Shown: piece after piece, positions 1 through 20,557 of the stretch
Layout: every line of letters begins with the position of its first letter
How positions within the stretch are numbered: the first letter of the stretch is position 1
Virus record (IMG/VR): IMGVR_UViG_2671181040_000013
Reading direction: 5' to 3' (one strand)
DNA length: 41,035 nucleotides
Source: a virus
Taxonomy: Duplodnaviria > Heunggongvirae > Uroviricota > Caudoviricetes
Notes under the pieces: model-generated
Databases searched by the model: none
Seen by the model: only the letters and a program-made list of their open reading frames with translations
What the model was told of the DNA's origin: nothing
Translations under genes and position numbers: made by a program

Positions 1-270
<270 letters not shown>

Positions 271-1873: not shown

Positions 1874-2070
1874 TACTGGCTGCGACATTTTTGAATAAAA
1901 GCGTCGATATTTCGGCGCTCATAACGAACTACTTTTGCACTGAAACGAATTGGTGCCAGGATAGCCCGATGACGATGCTTAATATTCCACTCACATAGCG
2001 TTTTCTGTGTAATACCTAACTTTTGGCATACTTCATCCGGGGTGAGTAAATCGTCGGGTTTCTCGCTCAT
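1870..2070 (-). CDS. xis: AlpA/Xis-like DNA-binding protein (putative excisionase)
   Basis: 66-aa basic protein with HTH-like segment (LTPDEVCQKLGITQKTLCEW); adjacent to int; 4-bp overlap with upstream helicase gene. Confidence 0.6.
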   Translation of the reverse strand: MSEKPDDLLTPDEVCQKLGITQKTLCEWNIKHRHRAILAPIRFSAKVVRYERRNIDAFIQKCRSQY

Positions 2071-3464
2071 GCTATACCTCTCTTTTTCATGGCATCGAGC
2101 AGGATGTCCTGCACTGTTCGTTTTGAGTTGCGCCGCTCCATCACCATTTCGTCCATAGTGTCGGCAGCAATAATGTGGTGAATAAATACCGGACGATTGT
2201 GTCCGGCCTGTATCTGTCTGGTTGGGCCGATACGTTCAATAATTTGCTGATATTGCTCCAGGTCCCACCAGTGTGAGAAAAATACCAGTATATTTCCGCC
2301 GTCCTGCATGTTCAGGCCGTGGCCCGCGCTGGCTGGGTGTGCAAAGAGAACAGGAATCTTTCCGGAATTCCAGTCGCGCAGTGTCTGTGGATCCTGGTCG
2401 AGGTGACGACCGCGAGGGAATGCTTTAAGCAAGCGTTCAAGATCGTGTTTCCAGTGATAAGCAACCAGCACAGGTGCGCCAGCTGCTTCGGTCAGTATGC
2501 TGTCCAGCGCCTGTAGTTTGGTGTCATGCAGTTCTGACCAACTTCCGGTGTCATCTGTGTATACTGCGCCGCTGGCGATTTGCAGACACTTCAGTGTCTT
2601 TGCCGCGGCGTTCGGTGCTTCGATGCCTTCGCCATTCAGCTCGAGGAACATTTCCTTTTCCATTTCACGATACTGCTGACGGGCCTTCGGTGGCATATCC
2701 ACGCGGATTACGTTATGGATGGGGTCTTTGATATCGAACCAGTCGGCCGCATCCAGCGAGAGGGTTACATCGGCTAACGCTCGCTGTATTTCACCCTGTG
2801 AGTGAGCAAAAGGCTCCAGTTTGGTCCAGCTCAGCCCCGGAAACTGTATCGAGTTGAACCAGCGTGAGGTAAACGCGCCGTAAGTGCGCCCGAGACGTTG
2901 CCCCTGGTCCACAAACCACGATTGTCCCCACAAATCTACCAGGCCGTTCGGTGCTGGCGTACCGGTGAGATTTATCCAGCGCCGGACATACTTATGCGCC
3001 ACTTTGCCCAGCGCCGCCGCGCGCTTACCACCACCTCGCAGCCGGAAGGATTTTAGCCGGGTGCTTTCATCTGGAATGACAATACCGAACGGCCATCGTT
3101 CTCCCAATTCTTCAACCAGCCAGACAAGGTTATCGTAGTTGATGGTGAACACGCTTGCGTTGCTGTTCGCCAGCGCCGTAGAGCGCGCTTTGGCATTACC
3201 AACAATCGGCTGCACCTCGATATTGCGCAAATGCCCCCACTTCACTGCTTCATCCGGCCAGGTGTTTGCTGCAACACGTAGCGGCGCGAGGACCAGTGCG
3301 GGGCGTGTTTCTGCCCCTGCCATAAAAAGATCTTCCAGCGCAGTGAGCGTTGCCACGGTTTTACCCATTCCCATACCTGCCCAGATGTTGCAGCGCATAA
3401 TGTCGATTTGATGATTGATGATGAGATCTTGGTAGGGGTGAGGTGAAAATATAGCATAGTCCAT
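2067..3464 (-). CDS. SNF2/DEAD-like superfamily-2 helicase
   Basis: Walker A GMGMGKT and DExx box (IPDESTR) visible in the 465-aa translation. Confidence 0.8.
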   Translation of the reverse strand: MDYAIFSPHPYQDLIINHQIDIMRCNIWAGMGMGKTVATLTALEDLFMAGAETRPALVLAPLRVAANTWPDEAVKWGHLRNIEVQPIVGNAKARSTALANSNASVFTINYDNLVWLVEELGERWPFGIVIPDESTRLKSFRLRGGGKRAAALGKVAHKYVRRWINLTGTPAPNGLVDLWGQSWFVDQGQRLGRTYGAFTSRWFNSIQFPGLSWTKLEPFAHSQGEIQRALADVTLSLDAADWFDIKDPIHNVIRVDMPPKARQQYREMEKEMFLELNGEGIEAPNAAAKTLKCLQIASGAVYTDDTGSWSELHDTKLQALDSILTEAAGAPVLVAYHWKHDLERLLKAFPRGRHLDQDPQTLRDWNSGKIPVLFAHPASAGHGLNMQDGGNILVFFSHWWDLEQYQQIIERIGPTRQIQAGHNRPVFIHHIIAADTMDEMVMERRNSKRTVQDILLDAMKKRGIA

Positions 3465-3531
3465 GGTATTGTATCTCCATGAATGAACTTATGTAGTAAT
3501 AGCTTAATTATTTATTTCGAAAGGAACAGTT

Positions 3532-4410
3532 ATGACCTCAGCTTATACAGATGTCCAGCAAGAAGAAAATATTACTGATAAATTAGTTGTTAAATATGAT
3601 GGTCCCGCACTAGCAGATCATAAAATAGATTTGGATGTTTTAACTGAGTCATTGAATGGACTAAACAACTTGCTTAAAGAAGTTAATTTGGTTGTCAATG
3701 GCACTAGTGAGTGTATTAATGTTGAGGTTGAGCCTTTTAAGGAAGGCTCATTTGAGTATTTGATTGATGTTATTCAAAATCCACTTGACCATTTGAATAT
3801 ATTAAGCATTATTGGGCTTGGAGGTACAACTGCACTCGCAGCAGGAAATACTCTCATTGACTTAATTCGTCAGATCAATGGTAGGCAAATAAAACGGTTG
3901 ACTTTAACAGCGGAAGGAGACTGTAAAATAGTTATGGATGATGGTGAGGAAATTATAGCCCCGTCATATTTCCGGCCTTTACTTGCCTCACCAAGCATAC
4001 GCAAATCCTTATCGAAGTTAATTCATAATCCTTTGCAAAAGGAAGGATACGAATCGCTTAAAATTTCAACTCAACAGGGGGTTGAGCTGATTAAGGTGCA
4101 CGAAGATAATATTGAACCGTTCAGATATAGGCGCGTTCCTGTAGTGCAGTCCTTGTCTGAAAGGGTGATTGAAGAGGCTCTAATCACATTTTTGACTATT
4201 CATAAGGATAAAAACACAGGCTGGCGAGTCAACTATGGCGATGACACAATCAGCGTGTCTATAGAAGATACTGAGTTCTTACAACGTGTTAGTACGGGAA
4301 GAGAACCTGGTGTTTTTAGTGATGCTTACTGCGTTGATTTGCTCGTCCGTGAGAACTTGAATTCGCTGGACAAAACGTACATAGTTGTTAAAGTACACGG
4401 CATCTTATAG
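3532..4410 (+). CDS. Hypothetical 292-aa soluble protein, first gene of accessory cassette
   Basis: ATG preceded by AAAGGAA; AT-rich by eye; opposite strand to flanking replication genes; no recognisable motif. Confidence 0.7.
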   Translation: MTSAYTDVQQEENITDKLVVKYDGPALADHKIDLDVLTESLNGLNNLLKEVNLVVNGTSECINVEVEPFKEGSFEYLIDVIQNPLDHLNILSIIGLGGTTALAAGNTLIDLIRQINGRQIKRLTLTAEGDCKIVMDDGEEIIAPSYFRPLLASPSIRKSLSKLIHNPLQKEGYESLKISTQQGVELIKVHEDNIEPFRYRRVPVVQSLSERVIEEALITFLTIHKDKNTGWRVNYGDDTISVSIEDTEFLQRVSTGREPGVFSDAYCVDLLVRENLNSLDKTYIVVKVHGIL

Positions 4411-4433
4411 TAGATTCACATGGGGAGGGGGCT

Positions 4434-4682
4434 ATGATTGCTTTTGCTTTTTGGCTGGCTTTTTTTAGCCTGCTTCCCGTACTATATTGGGTTCTTAAGA
4501 TGGGGTTTGACCGGTTACGCTTTGCGCTTATGCCTAAACATCATCTTGTTCTTGAATGTGTTGACTCAGAAGGAGTTGTCCGTCGCGATGTCGTTGATGT
4601 CTCTTCTGATGATGAATTTTACAAAATTGCAATGAATGCCATTCGTGCTGGAAGATCAGTCAAAGGAGGGACGTTTGAGTAG
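4434..4682 (+). CDS. Hypothetical 82-aa protein with one N-terminal transmembrane helix, second gene of cassette
   Basis: GGAGG 6 nt upstream of ATG 4434; hydrophobic N-terminus (IAFAFWLAFFSLLPVLYWVL) then charged soluble tail. Confidence 0.55.
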   Translation: MIAFAFWLAFFSLLPVLYWVLKMGFDRLRFALMPKHHLVLECVDSEGVVRRDVVDVSSDDEFYKIAMNAIRAGRSVKGGTFE

Positions 4683-5205
4683 CGCTTCTAAACCTGATAG
4701 CTACGAAAAAGTCCCTCTGATTTCTAATGTTGCTGCTGGTGGCATCACTGGTTTTTTAACATTACTGGTGTCCTCGTGGGACGGTCGTTTTCCGTATATT
4801 GGTTCTGATTTAAATACAATAAAGCCATTTCTTTTATTAATGCTTCCCAGTTGCGCTATGTTTCTGGCGCATTGGATAAAGTCGATTGGGTTTAAATGGT
4901 CCTTAGGTAGCGTTAATCGACAGTTATTAAGCATTAATAAGAAGAAAGAAAAAGAACTTCGCCGTGATATTGAAAAGTACAAAAATGTTATTTCTAATGA
5001 AAAGATAGAGGACTTTAAAAGTCAACTTGAACAAGTATTACAAGATCGTCATGATATTATTTCTAATAATTACGCACAGAAACTAAGAGAAAGAAATTAT
5101 ACGCAAGAAAAATATCATGAGCATAAACAAACCGCTGCAAATGATAATATTGAGCTGCAAAGCATACTGGAGAATCAGAAGTTCAATCAAAAAGGCATTG
5201 ACTAA
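4636..5205 (+). CDS. Hypothetical membrane protein (two predicted TM helices plus charged coiled-coil C-terminus), third gene of cassette
   Basis: ORF frame open from ATG 4636; more likely start is TTG 4675 preceded by AGGAGG (4664-4669), overlapping the stop of the previous gene; TM segments VAAGGITGFLTLLVSSW and FLLLMLPSCAMFLAHWI. Confidence 0.6.
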   Translation: MPFVLEDQSKEGRLSSASKPDSYEKVPLISNVAAGGITGFLTLLVSSWDGRFPYIGSDLNTIKPFLLLMLPSCAMFLAHWIKSIGFKWSLGSVNRQLLSINKKKEKELRRDIEKYKNVISNEKIEDFKSQLEQVLQDRHDIISNNYAQKLRERNYTQEKYHEHKQTAANDNIELQSILENQKFNQKGID

Positions 5206-5209
5206 ATTT

Positions 5210-5479
5210 TTATAATATCCTCTCTAGGTTCTTGCTATCCAGCACCACTACGGTAAAGCCCAGTTTTCGCAGACGTTCATGTTCGCGCAATTGGTCAGGC
5301 CGTGGTGGCTTGCCGGGAGATTTACATTCAACGAAAACGATACGACCACCTGGTAGCAGGACAATGCGATCCGGTACCGAGCGGTGACCGGGAGATACAA
5401 ACTTAAAGGCCACTCCGCCAGCTTTTTTCACTTCAGCGACGAGGTGCTTTTCGATAAGGCTTTCACGTTCATAGGCCAT
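5210..5479 (-). CDS. VRR-NUC domain nuclease
   Basis: About 89 aa with acidic/Lys residues in a PD-(D/E)XK-like arrangement (VPDRIVLL...VFVECKSPG); typical size and context; start chosen at MAYERES. Confidence 0.7.
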   Translation of the reverse strand: MAYERESLIEKHLVAEVKKAGGVAFKFVSPGHRSVPDRIVLLPGGRIVFVECKSPGKPPRPDQLREHERLRKLGFTVVVLDSKNLERIL

Positions 5480-5768
5480 CTGAATCCCACTCTTCAAAAA
5501 GCACATTCAATTCCAGTTTCTCTGCCAACGCGTTTTCTGCACGTGCGCCAGCAGAGTACTCCCACTCTTTGAGCATATAAATCGTATCGGCACAGCGAAG
5601 CATTGCGAGGCAGATGTCCATATACTGAGCCTGTGTCAAACCATTGGGTAAAGTTGCGGGGTTAAGCACAACATATCCCTTGTCCGTTAGCCTCTTTGCT
5701 GCGGAATGAAAAGCCGGGCGGTTAAATTGCTCGTAACCGCTCATCGGCCCGGCAACGTAAACGATCAT
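5469..5768 (-). CDS. DUF4406-like / nucleoside 2-deoxyribosyltransferase-like protein
   Basis: N-terminus MIVYVAGPMSG characteristic of this family as I recall; in replication module. Confidence 0.6.
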   Translation of the reverse strand: MIVYVAGPMSGYEQFNRPAFHSAAKRLTDKGYVVLNPATLPNGLTQAQYMDICLAMLRCADTIYMLKEWEYSAGARAENALAEKLELNVLFEEWDSDGL

Positions 5769-5980
5769 TCTTCGACCGCCTTACGCTTTTCACGCATATT
5801 CTGCATCAGGCAAAAATCAGATCTGCGTTCACTCCATTCCTGATTCAGTTCGTGATGTGATTCGCGGTTGGCTTTTGCCCAGACCTTCGCTGCCCGGTCA
5901 TATTCGCCGGATTGTTCAAGTCGCAAAGCCTCCCTTGCAGCCCTGTAATAAAGTGGATTGTCCCGGTATTTAAATGACAT
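5765..5980 (-). CDS. Hypothetical 71-aa protein
   Basis: ORF with AAGGAT RBS, overlapping neighbours in operon fashion. Confidence 0.5.
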   Translation of the reverse strand: MSFKYRDNPLYYRAAREALRLEQSGEYDRAAKVWAKANRESHHELNQEWSERRSDFCLMQNMREKRKAVEE

Positions 5981-5985
5981 AGGAG

Positions 5986-8049
5986 TTAATCCTTACGGTA
6001 GTGGTACGCCTCAAAACCGCCAGCGTTCAGTGGGATATCGGGCGCCCATTCGGGGTCAGTGGAGAGAAGCGCGGAAAGCGCTTTATCGTTGAAATCTTCT
6101 GTGTCAGGTGCTTCGGTGATCACCTCGTCGTGTACCGTCAGCACAATGCTGTAACCGGCATCTTCGATAAGCGGCATGTTTCCGGCCAGAATGTCGCGGG
6201 CGGCCGCCTGGGTGATGTTCTCCACCAGCTTTCCGCCGTAGGTTTTGAGTCGTTGCCATTTACGCGAATAAGAGTTAACCCCCATGTAGGTGATATTCCC
6301 TTTTTCGATAACCGGAGACGGGTAGCATACAGCGCGTCCGGATGGTAGCTGTATGCGCAGCCACGCGCCATCGCGGCGGATTTTAAGATAACCGCAATAC
6401 AATGTTTTTTGCGGTGTGGCGATTGCAGTGCGGACGGTGCGCTCCAGTTCGTACCAGAAATCACAGGTCGCGGGATGCGCCCGGCGCCAGAGACGTTTAA
6501 GTGAGTCGCAGGCGATAAATACCCGTTCAGAAAGCCCGTAGGTTGACTTGCGTTTAACCGATTCGTCGTACCAGCTTTTTGCCTCGCGGATAACATCGCG
6601 GGGAATGTTTGGTAGTGCGGCGTTCGCCAGCTCGTCGAGATCGAGACCGTAAACCAGTGCAAAAGTGATGAAGGCCGACACACCACCACCATAACCCAGA
6701 CCGAGTTCCATGACTTTACCGATCTGACGCATGTGTTTATCAACATCATCTGGTGCAATATCGAAAGCTTTTGCATACGCCAGTTTATATAAGTCCGGAC
6801 CCGTTCCGGCGTCGTACTCTCTGAATGCATTCAGTTTCCATTCTTCTCCCGCCAGCCATGCCAGCATACGGCCTTCAATGTTCGACAAGTCACTTACCAC
6901 CAGCTTTTTGCCTGTTGGCGCGATAATGCAGCCACGTAACGCTGAACTGGTTAGTTCCATGATATTGTCAAACAGCAGGTCTGCACATCCGGCTTTCAGT
7001 GCTTCGATGCCTTCGTCTATTTGTTCCTGTTTTAGTGAAGGGCGGGGAAGGTTCTGGGGCTGGAATAGCCGTCCGGCCCAACGACCGGTACGTGACGCCC
7101 CGCAGAACTGTAGCGTACCGCGTAAGCGCCCGTCGTGGCTTACGCCTTTCATCAGTGCCTTGTATTTACTGGTGCTGGTAGTACTGGCCTGCAGGCGGAT
7201 AGCCAGCAGTTCTTTCACGGCAGATGGTAAATCGGGGTCGGCAATACGACGTTCCAGAGTACTGCGTTGCATGTCCGGTAGCTCCACACCGTAGGATTCA
7301 ACAATGTGCTTAATCAACGCGTCCCGTTGTGTGGCTGCCTGCACTTCGCCATCAGTCATTTCCTGTGTACGCTTTGCCAGGCGCTTTTGCTCCTGGTCTA
7401 CCGCTTCGATCGCAGCGCGCGCGAGTTGCATGTCCATGCAGACGCCCCGGTCGTTGATCTGCTGATCACGATGCCAGAGCGCCAGCTCTGTCCCCTGATA
7501 ATTCCACTTCGGCAGACGTTTATAGACTTCGCGCATTGCCTCGATATCCAGTCCGGCGTAAGCAACAAAGCGCCGCCATTCTTCCGGGTGGGTTTTACTG
7601 GTGGCCCGACGCAGTTTGCTGTTTTTTGGGCGTGGCTTACAGAACAGCTGGATCAGCGCTTTACCTTCTTTGTCCTTCGCTTTGTCTTGCGGGACGCCTA
7701 GTACTTCGCAGAGTTCCCCCAGAGACCCCGGGAGACCGTGCGCCAGCGCCTGCACCATCGTGTCGCGCCAACGTTCGACTGGCGGTGCCAGTCGCGGCAT
7801 TGCATAACGCAGGACGGTGCGGTCGAAGTGAGAGTTATGAAAATAAAGCAGGGTTTCAGGGGCTGCGATTGCTTCGTATAAGCCGTGTGGAATACCACTA
7901 CCGGCAGTGATATCCCACACGTTTACGGGCCCGTCGTTGATAGCCCATGCGAACAGCATCACTTCAACGCCTTCGGCATACGCATGGGTACCGTTCGTAA
8001 TAGGGATTTCGCAATAGGTTTCTAGGTCACCCCATAGTATATTGGACAT
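5986..8049 (-). CDS. Family A DNA polymerase with 3'-5' exonuclease domain
   Basis: Exo motif DLETY near N-terminus; polymerase motifs ([25 protein letters not shown]) in the 687-aa translation. Confidence 0.9.
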
Positions 8050-8105
8050 AAAATAACCTTGTGTGATATATGGTTATGTAGGTGTAAATAAACAAGGAGA
8101 CGGCG

Positions 8106-8375
8106 GTGTTTAGCTTTGGTATCGGAATACTTTCATTGATAGGTATTATTGCTTTCCCCATTCTTTATATTTTAGGGAGAATAGTTCGGGCTGGTGGCGC
8201 ATGGCTCGAACGTGAAGAAGGTCCTAAGGATCGTGTTCTTCCCAAAATTATAATTTTTGCGCTTATTGGGTTCTTTCTTGGGTGTTTGGCTCAGCCTGTA
8301 TGGGACAGCATTTCGGCATGTAGAGACTATGGCAATCCAATAGGGAAATGTCTTTTTAAATTCAATGAATTTTAA
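8106..8375 (+). CDS. Small (89 aa) two-TM membrane protein, accessory gene
   Basis: GTG start with AAGGAGA RBS; two hydrophobic helices; AT-rich; opposite orientation to flanking early genes; hairpin 8392-8427 downstream. Confidence 0.55.
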   Translation: MFSFGIGILSLIGIIAFPILYILGRIVRAGGAWLEREEGPKDRVLPKIIIFALIGFFLGCLAQPVWDSISACRDYGNPIGKCLFKFNEF

Positions 8376-8442
8376 TTTTTAGTATTGCGGTAGGCTGGTT
8401 TGGATAACTATTTTCTTAAGCCAGCCTTTGTTATAAGAAATA

Positions 8443-9081
8443 TTAAGCATCTACCCCTTCGTCAGAAGGGAGGCCGATCATTTCGTTGAGAGTTTCGCGT
8501 CGTATAGCTGGCGGAAGCGGAGCAGATGGTGCATCGGCTGGCAGAAGTTCTTTAGCTTCAGGCCACTCTTCCAGCAGGCGCTTAACTGTGCGCACTTTAC
8601 TGAGTGCAGCGCTGACATTCTGTCGAATGTCTGACTCATCGCTCTGTATCTGCTCATAAAGTGCATCAAACCCGTAAAACTCTGTAACTAGAGGGTCATT
8701 TGCCAGAAGGGTAAATTCCCCCGGCGCGATTTTGTGAATATGGTCTGGTGACCCTGATTCATATCCTCGATAGTTACCGTTGAAATAGACGGTAACCCGA
8801 GAACCTGCCAGATTCAGACACATGTAACACTCTTTCCTGATAATATTATTGGCGGTTTTTAATGCTTCGGGGACTTTTGATACCAGTATTTCTATTTTTT
8901 TTATAATTTTTAATATTTCAGCTTCTTTCTCTACGCCCCCGATAGCTGCAAGCCGAACACGTTCGGCCCATTCAACACGAGCAGCTCGTAGTGCTGATTT
9001 ACGTTTGGGGATACCCGCTTTCTCAAGTGCGTTATTGATGATTTGAGTTTTAAGGTGATTAGTTAATACGGGCTGTGACAT
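8443..9081 (-). CDS. Hypothetical phage protein (about 212 aa)
   Basis: Long ORF in early operon; start chosen at MSQPVLT with GAGGG RBS. Confidence 0.6.
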   Translation of the reverse strand: MSQPVLTNHLKTQIINNALEKAGIPKRKSALRAARVEWAERVRLAAIGGVEKEAEILKIIKKIEILVSKVPEALKTANNIIRKECYMCLNLAGSRVTVYFNGNYRGYESGSPDHIHKIAPGEFTLLANDPLVTEFYGFDALYEQIQSDESDIRQNVSAALSKVRTVKRLLEEWPEAKELLPADAPSAPLPPAIRRETLNEMIGLPSDEGVDA

Positions 9082-9132
9082 TATTCTTTCCCTCATGAGA
9101 TCCCCCAGCATGTAGCTGGGGGATGAATATTT

Positions 9133-9681
9133 TTAAATTAGTGCTTCAGCATCAGCACCTTCGCTGATATCGTCGAAATCGTCAGCGCTTGCCACTCCGC
9201 CGCCAGCGAATGCATCGCCGTCTCGCAGGAACTGGACTCCGCCGAGTGAGGCATTAATGCGTTTACCGAAATTATTGTCCTGTGCCCAGATATCGATAAC
9301 GGCGTTTACATAGCACCCTGCATAGGGACGTCCGTCAGCCTGAATAAGTGGCGAACGATCGCGATCAAGAACAGCTGGGCGCGCTTTGTTAGCAGCATTC
9401 AGGAAGAAATTACCGGGGAAGCCTTCATACTCTGCTTTTTCATCACCATCATGCAGGCACAGATTGAGTTTTTTCTCCAGCTGGTTATAAATGGGCTCCC
9501 ACTTCTCTCCCCATTTTTCCTTCGCTACCTGCTTCATAGCTTTACGGATTTCTTCCAGTTGTGGGTGTTTGGGAGACATTAAAAATACTGCGGAGAAACG
9601 CGGATCGCCTTCGCCGTTTACAGTTTTAGCTTCAAACAGAGACGGGAAGGCCAGACGAACATTGTTCAGCTTCAGTTTCAT
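9133..9681 (-). CDS. Phage ssDNA-binding-like protein (DUF2815-like)
   Basis: N-terminus MKLKLNNVRLAFPSLFE and acidic C-terminal tail DDFDDISEGADAEALI. Confidence 0.7.
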   Translation of the reverse strand: MKLKLNNVRLAFPSLFEAKTVNGEGDPRFSAVFLMSPKHPQLEEIRKAMKQVAKEKWGEKWEPIYNQLEKKLNLCLHDGDEKAEYEGFPGNFFLNAANKARPAVLDRDRSPLIQADGRPYAGCYVNAVIDIWAQDNNFGKRINASLGGVQFLRDGDAFAGGGVASADDFDDISEGADAEALI

Positions 9682-9696
9682 GGGGATTTCCTTAAA

Positions 9697-10998
9697 TCAG
9701 ATGAGGTCTGCGGTTAGCGTATCGTCGGATACGTCGTCGAAATCATTTACAGGGTTGATATTGAGTGCGGGGCGTGGGTCTGACTCGGGAACGACGGTGG
9801 GTTTACCATCAGCTCGTGTTATCAGTGCCTCGACTTTTGACCAACGGCGCGGACTGGCCTTTTTGATAAGTTTTTCGGCTTTTGTGGGACTAATAAGTTT
9901 AAAGTCGAATACTTCTTCAGTTTTGTACCTGAACTGGTCCTTCAGAAGTGCGCGAGCTGCCACTTCGTCACTCCAGGCCCGGTTACCTTGTTTTCCTGTT
10001 ACCAGTTTAAACCCCGGTACCGGATGTCCGGCATTGAGTTCATTGTGAACCCGGTCCCGTACTGCCTTTAGCCAGGATTCAATAAAGTCGGCCTGGCTAT
10101 AGATCTCTGCAAGCTGCTCAATGGTTAACAGAGGTACACGTGCGCTGGCATTGGTGATTATTTCGCTGACAGGCTTTGTCAGATCTTCAAAATCGCTGGC
10201 CGCTGTTTGTAAATGCTGCATTTTCTGGGCAGTGCAAATAGCTTTTGCTTTACAGAAGCGGCACTGTTTTTCTCCAGGTATGAAGTTTTCCAGCGGTAGT
10301 GTCTCAATGCCTTCGCATTCAGCAATATTGAGAACAAGGATCGCACTGGTTGCGGCCTCCAGTGCCCGTTCTCCGAAAGACTGAAGTTCCTGTACGGTTA
10401 ACGACCATTCTGAAACGTGGTTGAGCCTTGGTTGGTGAATAAATAATCTTACAGTTTCAAAGTCATACAGCATGCTGAATTGTTCAAGCGCACCCAGAGC
10501 ATACAGTTGTAGTTGCTCATTTTGTTCTGCATCAATGCGGACGCCTTTGCCATATTTCAGGTCGTGGATTTGTAATTCGTTACCAGCGATGATTATGCCG
10601 TCGGCAGTTCCGAAAGATTCTTCCACACCCGTTATATGTGAGAAATCAACACGTTGTTCAACCAATAGTTCATTATTCTTTGCAAGAGTCCAGACCGTAT
10701 CAACATACCGGCCGACGGCTTCGACCATTTCATCATCCACCTGTGGGCCAGATTTATCATCAGGATTTTCGCGAAGGGGGTATGAGCCGAGAAACATAGA
10801 AACATTGCATCCGGCGTAGTGTTCCGGGTGGCTTTGCCTGTTTCGTAGAACTTTTTCAGCAAGCGCGTGCGCTGCAGTGCCCTCGATTGCAAAAGTTGTT
10901 TCTTTATCCGGTTGTGTGGCCTCCAGCGCCAGACTTCCTGGGCAGCGCATCCATCGATGCGCTGATGATGGAGAAAGTTGTGCGTGAACGTCTGGCAT
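9697..10998 (-). CDS. PD-(D/E)XK / Cas4-like nuclease (DUF2800-like) with C-terminal Cys cluster
   Basis: [14 protein letters not shown] motif near N-terminus, [10 protein letters not shown] cluster, acidic C-terminal tail. Confidence 0.75.
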
Positions 10999-12798: not shown

Positions 12799-13428
12799 TT
12801 ATCTTTTTCTGCGGAATATGCGATGTTCTACCATTGTCCCTATGATCTTAATTGGTTTTTCCCAGGAGCGACAAATAGGGTAATCACTATTCAATGGAAC
12901 AAGTTCAAAGTCTTCCTCACCCTTAGCGCCAATCCCTATCGGGCGGTATTTTTTGAACGTTGCTTCGTGGCTACCGTTACATGCCGCAACGAATTCACCA
13001 GGAGTAGGGTATACGTCAGTGTCAATTATAACGATGTCCCCCTCTTTAAATTCAGGTTCCATTGAATCCCCACGTATACGTAGCGCAAATGAACTTTCTG
13101 ATAGCTCAGCCGTGGTGAGAATGTATTCGAAATCACCTTCTTCACGAAGTAGTTCAGCGCTTGTGAAAGCCCCTGCTTGTACGTAGCTTAGAACAGGCAC
13201 CCTTCGGGCTCCGTAGTTGAAATCTGTAACAACATCGCCCCCAAGAAGTAGCCATTTAGGATCGCATTCAAGAGCTGACGCTAAAGCAAGAAGATTGCGT
13301 GGTTTAAGTGTTTTCCCATTCTCTATAGCTTCAATCGACTGCTGGCTAATGCCCGCTCGTTTCGCAACTTCGACCTGAGTTAAGTTTAGTTCTGTTCTGC
13401 GTTTTTTAGCTCGGTTGGCAAGATTCAT
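12799..13428 (-). CDS. CI-like repressor (HTH plus S24/LexA-type autopeptidase domain)
   Basis: N-terminal HTH (LTQVEVAKRAGISQQSIEAIENG); C-terminal S24 motifs (GDSM ... K); AAGGAG RBS before ATG at 13428. Confidence 0.85.
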   Translation of the reverse strand: MNLANRAKKRRTELNLTQVEVAKRAGISQQSIEAIENGKTLKPRNLLALASALECDPKWLLLGGDVVTDFNYGARRVPVLSYVQAGAFTSAELLREEGDFEYILTTAELSESSFALRIRGDSMEPEFKEGDIVIIDTDVYPTPGEFVAACNGSHEATFKKYRPIGIGAKGEEDFELVPLNSDYPICRSWEKPIKIIGTMVEHRIFRRKR

Positions 13429-13453
13429 GTTGACTCCTTTTCTGTCATTGATG

Positions 13454-13518
13454 ATTACAGATACCTCTGTATTTGACAAACAAGGTTGCCTGTGAGGTAA
13501 TTACAAGTAAACCTGTAA
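13454..13518. promoter_or_regulatory. Divergent PRM/PR-like promoters with operator repeats
   Basis: Rightward TTGACA (13472-13477) -N17- GGTAAT (13495-13500); leftward -35 TTGTTT and -10 TGTAAT on the minus strand (plus coordinates 13478-13483 and 13454-13459); 17-mer TACAAGTAAACCTGTAA at 13502-13518. Confidence 0.5.
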
Positions 13519-13535
13519 TAATGAGGGCTTACTCA

Positions 13536-13763: not shown

Positions 13764-16028
13764 ATGTCTGATAACAAACCATGGGGAGCTACGCCCGATG
13801 AATGGTTCCACTTCGATCTGGTGTTGGGGATGACAGACAGGCTTTTACCTGTGGTGTCCAATCCCTGTGCAGAACTGTCGCCTAATAGCAAGCTGTCTCA
13901 TAATTTCGGCAAAACACCCAGTCGCTACAATGGCCAACGTAAGGTTGTTGGTATCCCCGACTGGGCTAACTATGTTGTTACGGAAAACGATTTTGCCCGG
14001 TGGTCGAACGAACCCGATTACGGTATTTGCGTTCGTACTGGCGACGGGGTGGTGGCTCTGGACTGCGATATCAATGACGCCGGGATGCAGGAGATCGTAC
14101 GCAATATTATCCTGTCATGCCTGGGGGAACTTCCGCCACGTCGCTGGCGGGCTGACAGTCATAAATGCCTGTACCTGATTGCTGTTGATGGCGACTACCG
14201 TAAACGTGGTCACCGCCTGGAAGGCGAAAATAAACAAATAGAGCTGCTCGCTAAGGGCCAGCAGTTTGTGGCTTGTGGTACCCATCCGGCAGGCGAACGT
14301 ATTCAGTGGGACTGCGGTTTGCCCGGCGAACCTCTGAAAATTACATCTGAACAGCTCGAAAGCCTGTGGCAGCGCCTGGCGGATAACTTACCCGTGAAAG
14401 ACAGCTATACCGCAGGTGCGGGACGTCAGCGTGACCTTTCCTGTGTCGATCCTTCCGCGACAGATGATGTCGCCGACTGGCTTGACGCGAACGGGTGGAC
14501 TCTGTCGGTCAGCTCTGATGGTTCCCGCAATCTGAAACCGTTTCGGGATGAGTCAGAATACAGCAACGGTTGCAGCGAAACATCCATTAAGTATTTCCCA
14601 AAAGGGACGGGGGGATTTGAACAGGGACATTTTAAAAGCATGCACAACACCGATGCGGGGCTTACTGATGCCGACTGGCTGGAAGGCTACGGCTATACGC
14701 AATCTCTGTTCGAAGATCTCACGGTGGCTGAAGATGGCGATAAGCCTGAATTTACCGATATTAATACAGATATGACAGCCCATTTTCTGGAACGCTTTAT
14801 CTACGTCATCGAGGGTGACCAGGTATGTGATCTTAGCCGACCGCCATATCAGTGTATGATGGATATGAAGTCGTTCAAAAACCTGATGGCGCCTTACCAG
14901 TTCCCGCCAGAAGGGAAAGGACAACCAATTCCCGCAACCAAACGGTGGATAGAGCATCGGCATAAAAAGATTGCTGAGACGACAGGCTATAAGCCCGGTG
15001 CGGGACGTATTATCGAGCGTTTCGACGGGCGGTTTGAGATAAACGAATTTTATATGCCTGAGCATCCACGTACAGCGGATACAAGTAAGGTGTCCACGTT
15101 CCTTAATCATATGGCGTATCTGGTACCTGATGCCTGGCAGCGCGAGTTTTTCATCGCCCGTCTGGGGTGGATGGTTCAGCGTCCGGAGCGTCGATGCCCG
15201 ATTTCTATTCTGCATGTGGCTACCGCACATGGTACGGGCAGAGGATGGGTCAGCCAGTTAATGGAGCGCGTGCTTGGTCCGTGGAACTGTGCTCGTACTC
15301 GCATGAAGATCCTGTGCGATAACCAGTTCCATGACTATCTGTACAATACGCTTCTATGCACCATTGACGAGGTGCGCGAAAACGATAAGCGGTATGAGGT
15401 GAACGATAAGATCCGCGATGTGCTGACAGAACCACGGTTTGAAGTGAACCGCAAATATGGCAGCAAAAAAACGATGGATATATACACCGGCTTTCTGTTC
15501 TACACCAACCACTTTGATGCGCTGGCGCTGCCAGAGGAAGACAGACGTATCGCTGTGCTTGGTGGCCCTGACTTCGCCGCAACTGAAGAGCATTACGCCA
15601 GCCTGTACGGTGCGCTAAGCGACAGCGACTTTATCGCCCAGGTGTACTGGTATCTGATGGGCGTTGACCTGTCTCGCTTTAACTGGCAGCGCGCCCCCGA
15701 GACGAAAGAACGCCTTCTGATGATTGAAAGCAATAAGAGCGATGTGGAGGCTGCTCTTATTGAAATCCTGGATAATCCGCCTGTGCCAGCAATGACTTAT
15801 CAACAAATTGTTAACGCAATACTGGCAGAAGCAGGAATGGATGTAGAAATTAACCAGAAGCACATAACAAAGCTATTGCGAGAAAAAACAAAAAGGCAGC
15901 CAACAGATTTAGTAAAAATTGACGGAATGGGTTATCGCTTCTGGATACTTGCAAAAAATTGCGACTTCAATAATGAGGAATTGCGCGAAATATATAAAAC
16001 TTGCGAAATTTTGCAATCTGGATTGTAA
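13764..16028 (+). CDS. Phage DNA primase (prim-pol-like N-terminal domain, primase/helicase-like C-terminal region)
   Basis: 754-aa ORF after cro; acidic DxD-type motif (VALDCDINDAG); position and size typical of phage primases. Confidence 0.7.
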   Translation: MSDNKPWGATPDEWFHFDLVLGMTDRLLPVVSNPCAELSPNSKLSHNFGKTPSRYNGQRKVVGIPDWANYVVTENDFARWSNEPDYGICVRTGDGVVALDCDINDAGMQEIVRNIILSCLGELPPRRWRADSHKCLYLIAVDGDYRKRGHRLEGENKQIELLAKGQQFVACGTHPAGERIQWDCGLPGEPLKITSEQLESLWQRLADNLPVKDSYTAGAGRQRDLSCVDPSATDDVADWLDANGWTLSVSSDGSRNLKPFRDESEYSNGCSETSIKYFPKGTGGFEQGHFKSMHNTDAGLTDADWLEGYGYTQSLFEDLTVAEDGDKPEFTDINTDMTAHFLERFIYVIEGDQVCDLSRPPYQCMMDMKSFKNLMAPYQFPPEGKGQPIPATKRWIEHRHKKIAETTGYKPGAGRIIERFDGRFEINEFYMPEHPRTADTSKVSTFLNHMAYLVPDAWQREFFIARLGWMVQRPERRCPISILHVATAHGTGRGWVSQLMERVLGPWNCARTRMKILCDNQFHDYLYNTLLCTIDEVRENDKRYEVNDKIRDVLTEPRFEVNRKYGSKKTMDIYTGFLFYTNHFDALALPEEDRRIAVLGGPDFAATEEHYASLYGALSDSDFIAQVYWYLMGVDLSRFNWQRAPETKERLLMIESNKSDVEAALIEILDNPPVPAMTYQQIVNAILAEAGMDVEINQKHITKLLREKTKRQPTDLVKIDGMGYRFWILAKNCDFNNEELREIYKTCEILQSGL

Positions 16029-16031
16029 GAA

Positions 16032-16293
16032 GGTAACAGTAAGGTAACAGTAAAACGACTAACTGTTACCTTGAAAATATAAATAAATTCATATGGATAA
16101 CTAAAAAAGGTAACAGGTAACAGTAGTATTTAATTTATATATGCGAGACTTTATATTATACGTGCTATACCTGCACATATGTATATAGAACTAAAAGCAA
16201 CTGTTACCTGTTACCCAAAACGGGGTTAAGCCTTATGTGGCGCGCCCTACAGGAGGTAACAGTTAGCTATTTATCTGTTACCTTACTGTTACC
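16032..16293. repeat. Iteron array: 10 copies of GGTAACAG/CTGTTACC around an AT-rich core (candidate origin)
   Basis: GGTAACAG at 16032, 16043, 16109, 16116, 16255; CTGTTACC at 16063, 16201, 16208, 16275, 16286; AT-rich stretch 16124-16200. Confidence 0.6.
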
Positions 16294-16344
16294 TCAACAA
16301 TAAACTTGCAGAAAACTGCAAATAGCTAAGTGGAGTAAACAAAC

Positions 16345-16764
16345 ATGCAAAAAATACAAGTTTCAAAAATGATAGAAAATGAAACAGCGGAACCGGGAGA
16401 AGCATCCACGGCCATACGTTCAGTGGAAGCCGAGACAACCCGAAGGTTTTGGGTCGTAGAGCCCATTATTGACAGGGATCAGACTCCCGCAGGTGAGGTT
16501 TTTTGGTTCCGCAGGGTGATTGCCTGGGCTGTTGTTCTTGAGCAACTGGAGGGTTTCTCACCGGTTTCTGCGGTACGTCCGCTTGCTCTGGATAGCGATC
16601 TGGGTCAACTGGAGGTTTCCCACGGCAACGTTGTTGAGCTGGAAGATATTCCAAAGGGCGCGACACACACTTCCCCGGAGAAAATAGCATCTCGCAAACT
16701 GCCTGATGGGTTAGAGATGTCGTTAGACCTTGTGGTAAACGAGTTCTTCTTCCCTGTTGGGTGA
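16345..16764 (+). CDS. Hypothetical acidic protein (139 aa)
   Basis: ORF with GGAG RBS between iteron region and Q-like gene. Confidence 0.55.
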   Translation: MQKIQVSKMIENETAEPGEASTAIRSVEAETTRRFWVVEPIIDRDQTPAGEVFWFRRVIAWAVVLEQLEGFSPVSAVRPLALDSDLGQLEVSHGNVVELEDIPKGATHTSPEKIASRKLPDGLEMSLDLVVNEFFFPVG

Positions 16765-16812
16765 TAATCTTAGAAAAGTTTTTCCGTAACAAAACGTAGA
16801 GAGCAGATAACT

Positions 16813-17235
16813 ATGCGCAGAGATATGCAACTTGTTCTGGAGCGGTGGGGGCGATGGGCCGCGAGCGAGGAATACTGTTCAATGGTTGACTGGCCTTCGA
16901 TGTCGGTGATGCCTCAACGCGTAACCGCCAGCGGCAAACCCGGTTGCTCCGACGAGGACGGAGCCGCAATTGACACCTGCATCGCCCACATGAGCATGGT
17001 GTGTCCGCATGACGACTTGCTGGTTCTTGGCCTACGTTTCATCGGCGGCTTTTCTACGCGCTCAATCGCTGAATCTGTGAATCGTAGCCACCTTAGCGTC
17101 AGAACATCGCTTAGAGCGTCAGAGGCATTTCTTGAGGGAGCGCTGGTGCTCCAGGGAATTCGACTGGATATGGACCCTGAAGTTGCTTTACCTGAAAAGG
17201 TTGTGTGCGCACAAAAACATGTGCTATGGTTGTAG
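16813..17235 (+). CDS. Q-like late antitermination protein
   Basis: N-terminus MRRDMQLVLERWGRWAA resembles lambdoid Q-family proteins as I remember them; Cys/His-rich centre; located just upstream of lysis genes. Confidence 0.6.
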   Translation: MRRDMQLVLERWGRWAASEEYCSMVDWPSMSVMPQRVTASGKPGCSDEDGAAIDTCIAHMSMVCPHDDLLVLGLRFIGGFSTRSIAESVNRSHLSVRTSLRASEAFLEGALVLQGIRLDMDPEVALPEKVVCAQKHVLWL

Positions 17236-17264
17236 CATCTAGAATTGTATTCTACGTTCTGAAA

Positions 17265-17291
17265 GGCTCCGCTAACCCCGGAGCCTTTTTT
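17265..17291 (+). terminator. Intrinsic terminator just downstream of Q
   Basis: GGCTCCG-CTAACCC-CGGAGCC followed by TTTTTT. Confidence 0.5.
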
Positions 17292-17521
17292 CTTACCCCA
17301 TTCTGGGGAAAAGCTAATAAAACAGGGTTTTCGTCGCGAAAAAACGCTATGCAGTTTTTGCCCTTTTTTATGCACCTTTTATTCACTCGAATTTCGTCAT
17401 TCTGGACCACTTAAGTTGATTAAATAGGCCTTTCATCGCAAATCTATTGCGAGCGGTGATCGTGTGGTTCCTATAACGTACATTATGTTAAATAACCTCC
17501 TTTTTTAACAAATTTAACAAG

Positions 17522-20005: not shown

Positions 20006-20557
20006 ATGGCACTCACCGACAAACAAGAGATGTTCTGTCGCGAGTACCTCATCGATTTAAACGCCACGCAAGCGGCTATTCGGGCGGGGTACAGCGCAAA
20101 GACAGCTAACCGTACCGCATCCGAAAACCTGTCAAAACCTGACATCAAGTTAAGAATCGCCGAACTGAAAGCGCAACGCAATGATCTTGTTGGTATTAAT
20201 GCAGAATATGTACTTAATCGCCTTATTGAAATCGACCAGATGGATGTGCTTGACATTCTCCTGCAAAACGGTGAGCTAAAACCCATTAAAGACTGGCCTA
20301 AGGTATGGCGCACAACGTTATCAGGAATGGATGTCGTGGAGATGGCATCCGCAGATAGCGCCGCACTTCTGAAGAAAATCAAATGGCCTGATAAGGTTAA
20401 AAACCTTGAGTTGCTCGGGCGTCATGTTTCTGTTCAGGCGTTTAAAGACAATGTCAAAAATGAAGTGACTGGTGCTGACGGAGGACCAGTCAGAACAGAA
20501 ATTACCAACTTAACGCCGGAGCAGGTTACAGAAGCGTATAAAAAAATGATGGGCTAA
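20006..20557 (+). CDS. terS: Terminase small subunit
   Basis: N-terminus [30 protein letters not shown] typical of small terminase; immediately upstream of large terminase. Confidence 0.8.

Follow-up and report, generated by a model that had tools for sequence, protein, structure and literature searches.

Ten octamers behind a prophage primase-helicase gene form a probable replication origin, predicted to be read by the winged-helix tail of the same protein

The window analysed here, a 41,035-bp stretch of viral DNA (IMG/VR record IMGVR_UViG_2671181040_000013), represents an integrated temperate phage, namely a complete temperate myovirus-type prophage of E. coli (Enterobacterales). Directly behind its primase-helicase gene, in the region 16029-16296, ten octamers are arranged as iterons around an AT-rich core. 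Based on comparisons with related prophages, these octamers very probably constitute the replication origin of the prophage and would be read by the C-terminal ~50 amino acids (aa) of its own primase-helicase. The origin is probably theta-type and bidirectional. As judged from the same comparisons, the winged-helix tail of the primase and the putative origin form one exchangeable specificity cassette, with distinct initiator/origin pairs among related phages.

Counted together with its minus-strand form CTGTTACC, the octamer GGTAACAG is matched exactly at 12 places in the window. In 100 dinucleotide-preserving shuffles the expectation was 0.95 +/- 0.99, and none of them reached 12 (0/100). Ten of the 12 copies lie inside 16032-16293 (262 bp), five on each strand. 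A preliminary description of this stretch had reported ten octamers, five per orientation, within about 260 bp immediately downstream of the primase gene and around an AT-rich core at 16124-16200, and all of this was confirmed; the interval that it gave, 16029-16344, is the exact intergenic gap between the stop codon of a 754-aa open reading frame (ORF; 13764-16028) and the next ORF, which starts at 16345. The first iteron begins 4 bp past the primase stop codon. The remaining two matches, at 9996 and 32463, are isolated singletons in line with chance, and no second iteron cluster was found in the 41-kb window when up to one mismatch was allowed. The plus-strand copies start at 16032, 16043, 16109, 16116 and 16255, and the minus-strand copies lie at 16063, 16201, 16208, 16275 and 16286, giving the order ++-++, then a 77-bp AT-rich core, then --+--. 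With start-to-start spacings of 11, 20, 46, 7, 85, 7, 47, 20 and 11 bp, the layout is a near-perfect dyad whose best centre is 16162.5. A repeat finder likewise returned nested inverted repeats, an outer one pairing 16031-16071 with 16254-16294 (41 nt, 88% complementary) and an inner one pairing 16109-16135 with 16189-16215. The core is 74% A+T compared with 51% for the whole window, and only 166 of 40,959 77-bp windows are equally AT-rich. Two core motifs, TTATATATGCGAGA (16135-16148) and TATGTATATAG (16178-16188), are present in every iteron type described below. As in iteron-type theta origins generally, repeated sites thus adjoin an AT-rich region, here the presumed unwinding element.

A megablast search with a 551-bp query spanning the origin (15900-16450) covered 5,426 complete E. 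coli genomes and found the region in 45; identity was 95-99% in six of these and ~75% in the other 39. It was also found in four phage isolates (vB_EcoM-606R2 and relatives), in which the gene is annotated as hypothetical, and the module occurs in Salmonella, Citrobacter, Serratia, Erwinia and Xenorhabdus as well. In the diverged E. coli copies the gap measures 315-317 bp and keeps the same architecture, and all ten sites now read GGTGGCAG or GGTGAC(G/A)(G/C). For comparison we assembled 31 loci with a full-length homologue from genomes and viral contigs, with a sampled protein identity of 41-100%; these prophage loci belong to E. coli, Salmonella, Serratia and further genera. Five iteron words occur across these loci (GGTAACAG, GGTGGCAG, GGTGACGG, GGTGACAG and GGTGTCAG), all ten sites switch together, and the positions GGT..C.G are invariant across types. 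The ten sites keep constant offsets from the stop codon in the 31 loci, namely +4, +15, -35, +81 and +88 to the left of the core and -173..177, -180..184, +227..231, -247..251 and -258..262 to its right, the signs giving orientation; most loci keep ten exact copies of their type word, and six of the 31 have only 8-9. When the window was compared with the Serratia loci, whose primase is 68% identical, the iteron columns were identical at 78 of 78 positions, whereas the other intergenic columns were 57-59% identical (Fisher p ~1e-14). Other same-type pairs with distant backbones likewise combine conserved octamer columns with a diverged remainder. This contrast marks the octamers as the selected elements, kept by purifying selection.

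The position of variation in the adjacent protein points to the part that would read the octamers. Six E. coli prophage primases, which between them occur with three iteron types, are ~99% identical over aa 1-702 and differ almost solely in aa 703-746; 21 of the 28 variable columns among them fall in the last 52 aa, 703-754 (Fisher p=4e-21). In an AlphaFold2 model, the variable residues sit on the C-terminal half of recognition helix H3, on the loop that follows and on the tip of the wing. At the nucleotide level, identity to two related loci (L015 and L016) is 97-100% from 13000 to ~15860 and 70-80% from ~15870 to 16300. The drop at ~15870 therefore indicates a mosaic breakpoint inside the primase gene, and this position is, on the sequence evidence, the left edge of the putative exchangeable cassette of winged-helix tail and ori. 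Across 21 aligned sequences, with identities reaching 41%, entropy within the domain peaks at residues 722-724 (2.3-2.9 bits), which are flanked by the invariant G721, R725 and W727. This wing motif (G-xxx-R-x-W, aa 721-727) matches the iteron word with no exceptions in the 31 loci, which comprise at least 11 primase-backbone clusters. The word TAACAG is found with G[MI]GYRFW, TGGCAG with G[ML]TVRMW and GDTLRFW, TGACGG with GFVYRIW, TGACAG with GIAQRFW, and TGTCAG with G[CFS]T[NQ]RFW; that is, five iteron types pair with five wing classes, which suggests cognate specificity between the C-terminal domain and the iterons.

None of the neighbouring genes follows the iteron type in this manner. 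One Cro cluster and one repressor cluster (A and F) are each found with three iteron types, one downstream-ORF cluster (D) and one cluster (D, at least 95% identity) of the antiterminator Q are found with two types each, and one iteron type is in turn shared by several clusters each of Q, Cro, the repressor and the downstream ORF. Since each of them occurs with more than one iteron type, Cro, the repressor, the downstream ORF and Q were excluded as readers. Even the body of the primase is uncoupled from the array, as one body cluster (at least 95% identity) was found with three iteron types. From the sequence comparisons and the model, we infer that the winged-helix tail of the primase reads the octamers. 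The ten sites change together and the change tracks only the last ~50 residues of the primase, which lends support to the earlier suggestion of an origin built from primase-bound iterons.

The 754-aa protein matches Pfam PF09250 (Prim-Pol) at aa 75-185 and PF19263 (DUF5906) at aa 488-595, as well as PHROG 1156 'DNA primase'. A profile search of the PDB matched it to a single solved structure, that of the NrS-1 helicase (6k9c, E=5e-19). An archaeo-eukaryotic primase (AEP) is thus fused to a helicase of the superfamily 3 (SF3) class. The C-terminal part was modeled with AlphaFold2 over aa 581-754 from a 32-sequence alignment, and the predicted local distance difference test score (pLDDT) was ~90 for aa 660-754. 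The model contains helix H1 (660-670), a strand (676-678), H2 (679-690), H3 (698-709, the recognition helix), a beta-hairpin wing (717-728) and a C-terminal helix (737-753), and supports a winged helix as the predicted fold class of aa 660-754. Structure comparison of this domain gave generic winged-helix matches only and no specific known origin-binding domain. The helicase core's Walker A motif, AHGTGRGW (aa 488-495; window 15225-15248), carries Arg493 where NrS-1 (GKQGTGKG) has the catalytic Lys453. Arg493 (GTGRG) is present in 53 of the 53 DUF5906-type homologues inspected, in which the arginine-finger pair DRR (593-595) is also conserved.

Several points weigh against the origin assignment. 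The winged-helix tail adjoins the array, and since the two are physically adjacent, their perfect association is partly expected from block inheritance; the case for a functional link is therefore built on three observations, namely that the ten sites change in concert, that conservation singles out the octamers, and that the variable residues of the protein map to predicted DNA-reading elements. Origin firing, iteron binding and core melting are predictions drawn from sequence. The right spacer is GC-rich, with 44% A+T compared with 87% in its mirror image on the left, which is the only marked break in the dyad symmetry. Moreover, helicase/NTPase activity of the 754-aa protein is uncertain because the Walker A Lys is replaced by Arg493. 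In the case of the Staphylococcus aureus pathogenicity islands (SaPIs), Rep proteins bind and melt origins without ATP (PMC9371898), so origin opening need not depend on the Arg493 position.

Other signals in and around the array were sparse. The DnaA box consensus is TTATCCACA, and a DnaA-box-like site, TTATCCATA, matches it at 8 of 9 positions on the minus strand of the left spacer (16092-16100). In the alignment of related origins, this site was not conserved and no conserved IHF consensus was seen. A scan of 15700-17400 revealed no plus-strand promoter-like (sigma-70-like) or terminator-like site in the array; the sole matches were a minus-strand promoter-like site in the 3' end of the gene and a minus-strand hairpin at 16304-16323. 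Since no plus-strand terminator-like site was found between the primase gene and Q, early transcription probably crosses the origin. No RNA family was found when the complete window was compared with Rfam at gathering thresholds. A 16-bp palindrome-like pattern, TTGCR-N6-YGCRA, is present in three copies flanking the iteron array, two within the primase gene's final 80 bp (15949-15964 and 16001-16016) and one 13 bp past the last iteron (16306-16321). The window total is seven strand-matches (five sites) against 1.25 expected, for a pattern that was defined after seeing the copies. The downstream copy is partly conserved in relatives as AAC-TTG...CAAATA and is unrelated to the CI/Cro operators.

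In the mechanism that we propose, the winged helix would read GGTAACAG through the end of the recognition helix and the tip of the beta-hairpin wing (aa 703-728), as suggested by the co-variation of wing and iterons and by the model. The five sites in mirror order on each side may position two oligomers, probably hexamers, which would face each other across the 77-bp core; this is modeled on SaPI Rep and other SF3 initiators and on the dyad layout. The core would then melt and the Prim-Pol domain would lay primers, by analogy with SaPI Rep, P4 alpha, ORF904 of pRN1 and the SF3 initiators of eukaryotic viruses. Elongation may be carried out by the family-A polymerase and the single-stranded DNA-binding protein (SSB) encoded in the left arm of the phage, or by host enzymes. 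More speculatively, early rightward transcription from the Cro promoter through the origin toward Q may assist opening, as at the lambda origin.

An array bound by the primase winged helix could also be something other than the start site, such as an auxiliary cis element resembling P4 crr with the actual start elsewhere, a site of copy control or handcuffing, or a protein roadblock that slows read-through of the early operon into Q. The element directly downstream of alpha in P4 is crr and not ori, and in the window the sole route of transcription from the early promoter to Q crosses the array and meets no plus-strand terminator-like site in between. However, the lack of a second iteron cluster in the 41-kb window, also with one mismatch allowed, leaves the array without a partner 'ori', it encloses an AT-rich and type-independently conserved core typical of an unwinding element, and the same layout in SaPIs was demonstrated to be the origin itself (PMC9371898). 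We thus regard these roles as unlikely substitutes for an origin; that of a roadblock is compatible with origin function, and both could coexist. It is less probable still that the long imperfect palindrome itself matters, as a stem-loop or cruciform in which the octamers are merely parts of the stem and no base-specific reading takes place, as in the proposals for pRN1 and BIP-1. Folded as single-stranded DNA, the array region does score far better than its shuffles (z=-9.1), and for a protein combining AEP, SF3 and winged-helix domains, a stem-loop on the 3' side of the gene has been documented as the origin (PMC4234260). A constraint on structure would, however, permit any compensatory change, whereas just five words were observed, each identical at all ten sites, even in direct repeats that do not pair with one another (16032/16043), and each tied to one wing motif; the spacers within the palindrome arms diverge freely.

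The preliminary description had also allowed that the repeats are binding sites of a late-gene regulator, and this did not hold. Repeated inverted sites are typical of operators, and the array does lie upstream of both the 139-aa ORF and Q, so that Q, Cro, CI or the downstream-ORF product could be imagined to act here on late or delayed-early genes. Against this stand the clusters described above, those of Q and of the downstream ORF (D) and of Cro and the repressor (A and F), each of which occurs with two or three iteron types, while no sigma-70-like plus-strand promoter was found in the array region. We rejected the array as a set of CI/Cro operators in particular, since the probable operators (13452-13521) belong to the TACAG-N6-CTGTA type, which is unrelated, and immunity regions swap independently of the iteron type. 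A regulatory array of this kind is thus highly improbable. Repeat arrays can also act as binding sites of TerS (the terminase small subunit) or ParB, but a packaging (pac) or partition site seems next to excluded here; the array is 3.7 kb away from the terminase genes, no partition genes were present among the ORFs examined in this integrase-carrying phage, and the iteron specificity follows the primase tail. The coordinates of the array and of the genes around it are collected in Table 1.

Table 1. Coordinates of the putative origin, its predicted initiator and other features of the window
Feature	Position	Strand	Remarks
Integrase	470-1873	plus	
SNF2-type helicase	2067-3464	minus	
DUF4406	5469-5768	minus	
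Family-A DNA polymerase	5986-8049	minus	
Nmad5 nucleotide-modification-associated protein	8443-9111	minus	
Enc34-type single-stranded DNA-binding protein	9133-9681	minus	
DUF2800 PD-(D/E)XK nuclease	9697-10998	minus	
S24/helix-turn-helix (HTH) CI-like repressor	12799-13479	minus	Likely ATG near 13428
Probable CI/Cro operators in the repressor-cro gap	13452-13470, 13496-13521		TACAGATACCTCTGTA, TTACAAGTAAACCTGTAA; TACAG-N6-CTGTA palindromes
Cro-like HTH protein	13537 (ATG) to 13760		
Predicted initiator gene, 754 aa	13764-16028	plus	Prim-Pol N-terminal, DUF5906/NrS-1-like SF3 helicase core, C-terminal winged helix
Predicted C-terminal winged-helix coding segment (aa 660-754)	15741-16025	plus	
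Putative specificity patch (aa 703-736)	15870-15971	plus	C-terminal half of recognition helix, next loop, wing tip G721-M-G-Y-R725-F-W727
Left outer iteron block	16032-16070		GGTAACAG at 16032(+) and 16043(+), CTGTTACC at 16063 (minus-strand copy); offsets +4, +15, -35 conserved in 31 loci
Left spacer	16071-16108		87% A+T; contains DnaA-box-like TTATCCATA
Left inner iteron pair	16109-16123	plus	GGTAACAGGTAACAG; copies share one base
AT-rich core, presumed DNA unwinding element	16124-16200		74% A+T; dyad centre 16162.5
Right inner iteron pair	16201-16215	minus	CTGTTACCTGTTACC; mirror of 16109-16123
Right spacer	16216-16254		44% A+T; partly conserved GCCTTAYGTGGCGCGC block
Right outer iteron block	16255-16293		GGTAACAG at 16255(+), CTGTTACC at 16275 and 16286 (minus-strand copies)
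139-aa ORF between origin and Q	16345-16764		
Antiterminator Q	16813-17235		

The 139-aa ORF (16345-16764) has no Pfam or PHROG family, and the slot that it occupies between the origin and Q is variable, as relatives hold unrelated ORFs of 56-140 aa there. Past Q, the gene order is holin, endolysin, Rz and then TerS (20006-20557). The left arm (2067-10998), on the minus strand, is a phage-encoded module of replication and DNA metabolism, in which the presence of Nmad5 and DUF4406 hints at DNA base modification.

A sister family pairs a Prim-Pol domain with VapE (PF05272) in proteins of 722-739 aa, and its Prim-Pol N-terminus is ~60% identical to that of the window protein (loci L010-L012 and L038-L090). 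In this family, inverted iteron blocks likewise surround a core immediately downstream of the gene, for example in L038 (offsets 31-260 past the stop codon), L048 and L055. At least eight words are in use, among them GGTTGAGTA, GTGGTTAC, GTGGTAAC, GGTGGTTCC, TTGGTACAG and GGTTGTCT, and each word co-varies with a different C-terminal 'GKxxx[VI][WF]' hairpin. The VapE-type proteins have the canonical GCGKS as their Walker A motif. We also looked for satellites that bear the same iterons without a primase; screening viral contigs with GGTAACAGGTAACAG gave no enterobacterial hijacker, the matches being mostly single chance ones plus a few low-GC contigs with real arrays beside unrelated D5-type helicases or integrases. 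Inverted blocks of GGTAACAG around AT-rich cores were observed in four such unrelated contigs, directly 3' of a D5_N-DUF5906-Pox_D5 helicase gene in L130 (10880-11114), with an integrase gene on one side and the gene of an HTH repressor on the other in L097 (9208-9325) and L137 (4370-4491), and in L120 (10943-11134). This may reflect convergent use of the word or a shared type of winged helix.

It is possible, but in our view doubtful, that residues 722-724 and a few neighbours in H3 and the loop amount to a simple portable code for octamer positions 4, 5 and 7, and that occupancy by the initiator couples the onset of late transcription to replication. Because transcription from the early promoter can reach Q only across the origin, occupancy could couple late transcription, including Shiga toxin 2b (Stx2b) expression in toxin-carrying relatives, to replication. 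If such a code held, the prophage family and the VapE-type sister family would supply a natural collection of at least a dozen initiator/origin pairs for Enterobacterales, orthogonal to one another and independent of host initiators, which could be re-targeted through a swap of the ~50-aa tail. The analysis locates a probable origin and a candidate specificity determinant for a module that databases call 'DUF5906 domain-containing protein' or 'hypothetical protein', and it provides a putative origin annotation for a prophage family that includes Stx2b phages. For a winged-helix initiator, it also offers a correspondence of residues to bases that can be tested directly, together with natural variants of specificity.

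A literature search retrieved no description of this origin, and papers on the Eru types give gene content only. Among these, the 'Eru10' replication-region type of Shiga-toxin phages is defined by gene content, with no iteron or origin mentioned (Fagerlund et al. 2022, PMC8951638). One of our loci, L004 (E. coli CFIAFB20190157 chromosome, 4233105-4239437), is a Stx2b-converting prophage that carries the module with a GGTGACGG-type origin, and only one small ORF, Q and tRNA-Arg lie between its origin and stxA2b. The module of L004 probably corresponds to the Eru10 type, with which it shares the order cI, cro, PF09250 protein, Q and stx. In lambda, the iterons are located within the O gene and recognized by O's N-terminal domain, and O has no enzymatic activity but recruits host DnaB via P. 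In the lambdoid phages (lambda, 434, phi80, P22), as in our prophages, the DNA-binding part of the initiator and the iterons co-vary as an exchangeable cassette among mosaic temperate phages, an AT-rich region adjoins the iterons, and early rightward transcription crosses the origin; in contrast, the predicted initiator described here has its own primase and a helicase-like core, and its iterons are intergenic. Iteron specificity of O/ori has been described for Stx phages (PMC7466680).

The proteins of pRN1 and BIP-1 combine AEP, SF3 and winged-helix domains, and for each the origin is situated 3' of the gene that encodes it (PMC4234260). ORF904 of pRN1 and the protein of Bordetella phage BIP-1/BPP-1 share with the window protein the order of Prim-Pol, SF3 helicase and winged helix, and their essential 3' origin contains a large palindrome. 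However, these origins are described as stem-loops without iterons, whereas the palindrome described here is made of ten putatively sequence-specific sites. In the case of P4, the octamer TGTTCACC that the preliminary description gave is correct, being annotated as 'ori type 1 repeat' in the P4 record. The winged helix of alpha binds octamers; ten of them form crr directly downstream of alpha and six more are found at ori, the 8-bp iterons occurring in both orientations as in the window. Alpha also unites, in a single polypeptide, a primase, a PF19263 helicase core and a C-terminal winged helix (the latter being predicted for the window protein). In contrast, ori and crr of P4 are ~4.7 kb apart whereas the window has a single cluster, and the primase of alpha is of the Zn-ribbon and Toprim (DnaG) type (PF08273 and PF13362) rather than PF09250. 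Alpha further contains D5_N and Pox_D5 domains, to which the window protein has no match; BLASTP between the two proteins gave E=0.35, with PF19263 as the only shared Pfam domain. We found no specific relation of the C-terminal domain to the Pox_D5-type origin-binding winged helix (PDB 1ka8), the origin-binding domain of P4 alpha. Hence, of the proposed likeness to P4, the shared PF19263 core stands, but the primase class differs, Pox_D5 is not detectable, and the relation is mainly one of analogy.

The closest functional match, by analogy, is the origin of SaPI Rep/PriRep. SaPI Rep origins are reportedly the subject of Ubeda et al. 2007. We considered and rejected a direct homology with P4 alpha or with SaPI Rep, as none was found for the window protein by BLASTP, phmmer or profile search; for SaPI Rep, neither phmmer nor the profile search of all PDB chains, which returned only NrS-1, gave a match. 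The PDB copy searched (2026) presumably includes the SaPI Rep1 and PriRep5 structures of Qiao et al. 2022. In SaPIs, the winged helix in the C-terminal domain of Rep/PriRep binds 6-12 iterons that lie immediately downstream of rep, oppositely oriented on either side of an AT-rich centre, and in SaPI5 a fusion joins Pri to Rep as PriRep5 (PMC9371898). Likewise, the window combines an AEP primase (helicase-fused as in PriRep5), a self-loading helicase of the SF3 class and a C-terminal winged helix predicted to read iterons, and its ten octamers, within the range of 6-12, lie directly 3' of the gene in opposite orientations with an AT-rich middle. Allelic Rep/ori specificities are a further likeness. 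The iterons differ in being octamers in a fixed, near-perfect 5+5 dyad compared with the penta- and hexamers of SaPIs, and the host element is a complete temperate prophage that also encodes PolA, SSB and a nuclease, whereas SaPIs are satellites. The kind of origin is an expected one that is already known from P4 and the SaPI islands and involves no new principle; what the present case would add is that the SaPI/P4 design, in which a self-loading primase-helicase is paired with an iteron origin 3' of its gene, extends to complete temperate phages of Gram-negative bacteria.

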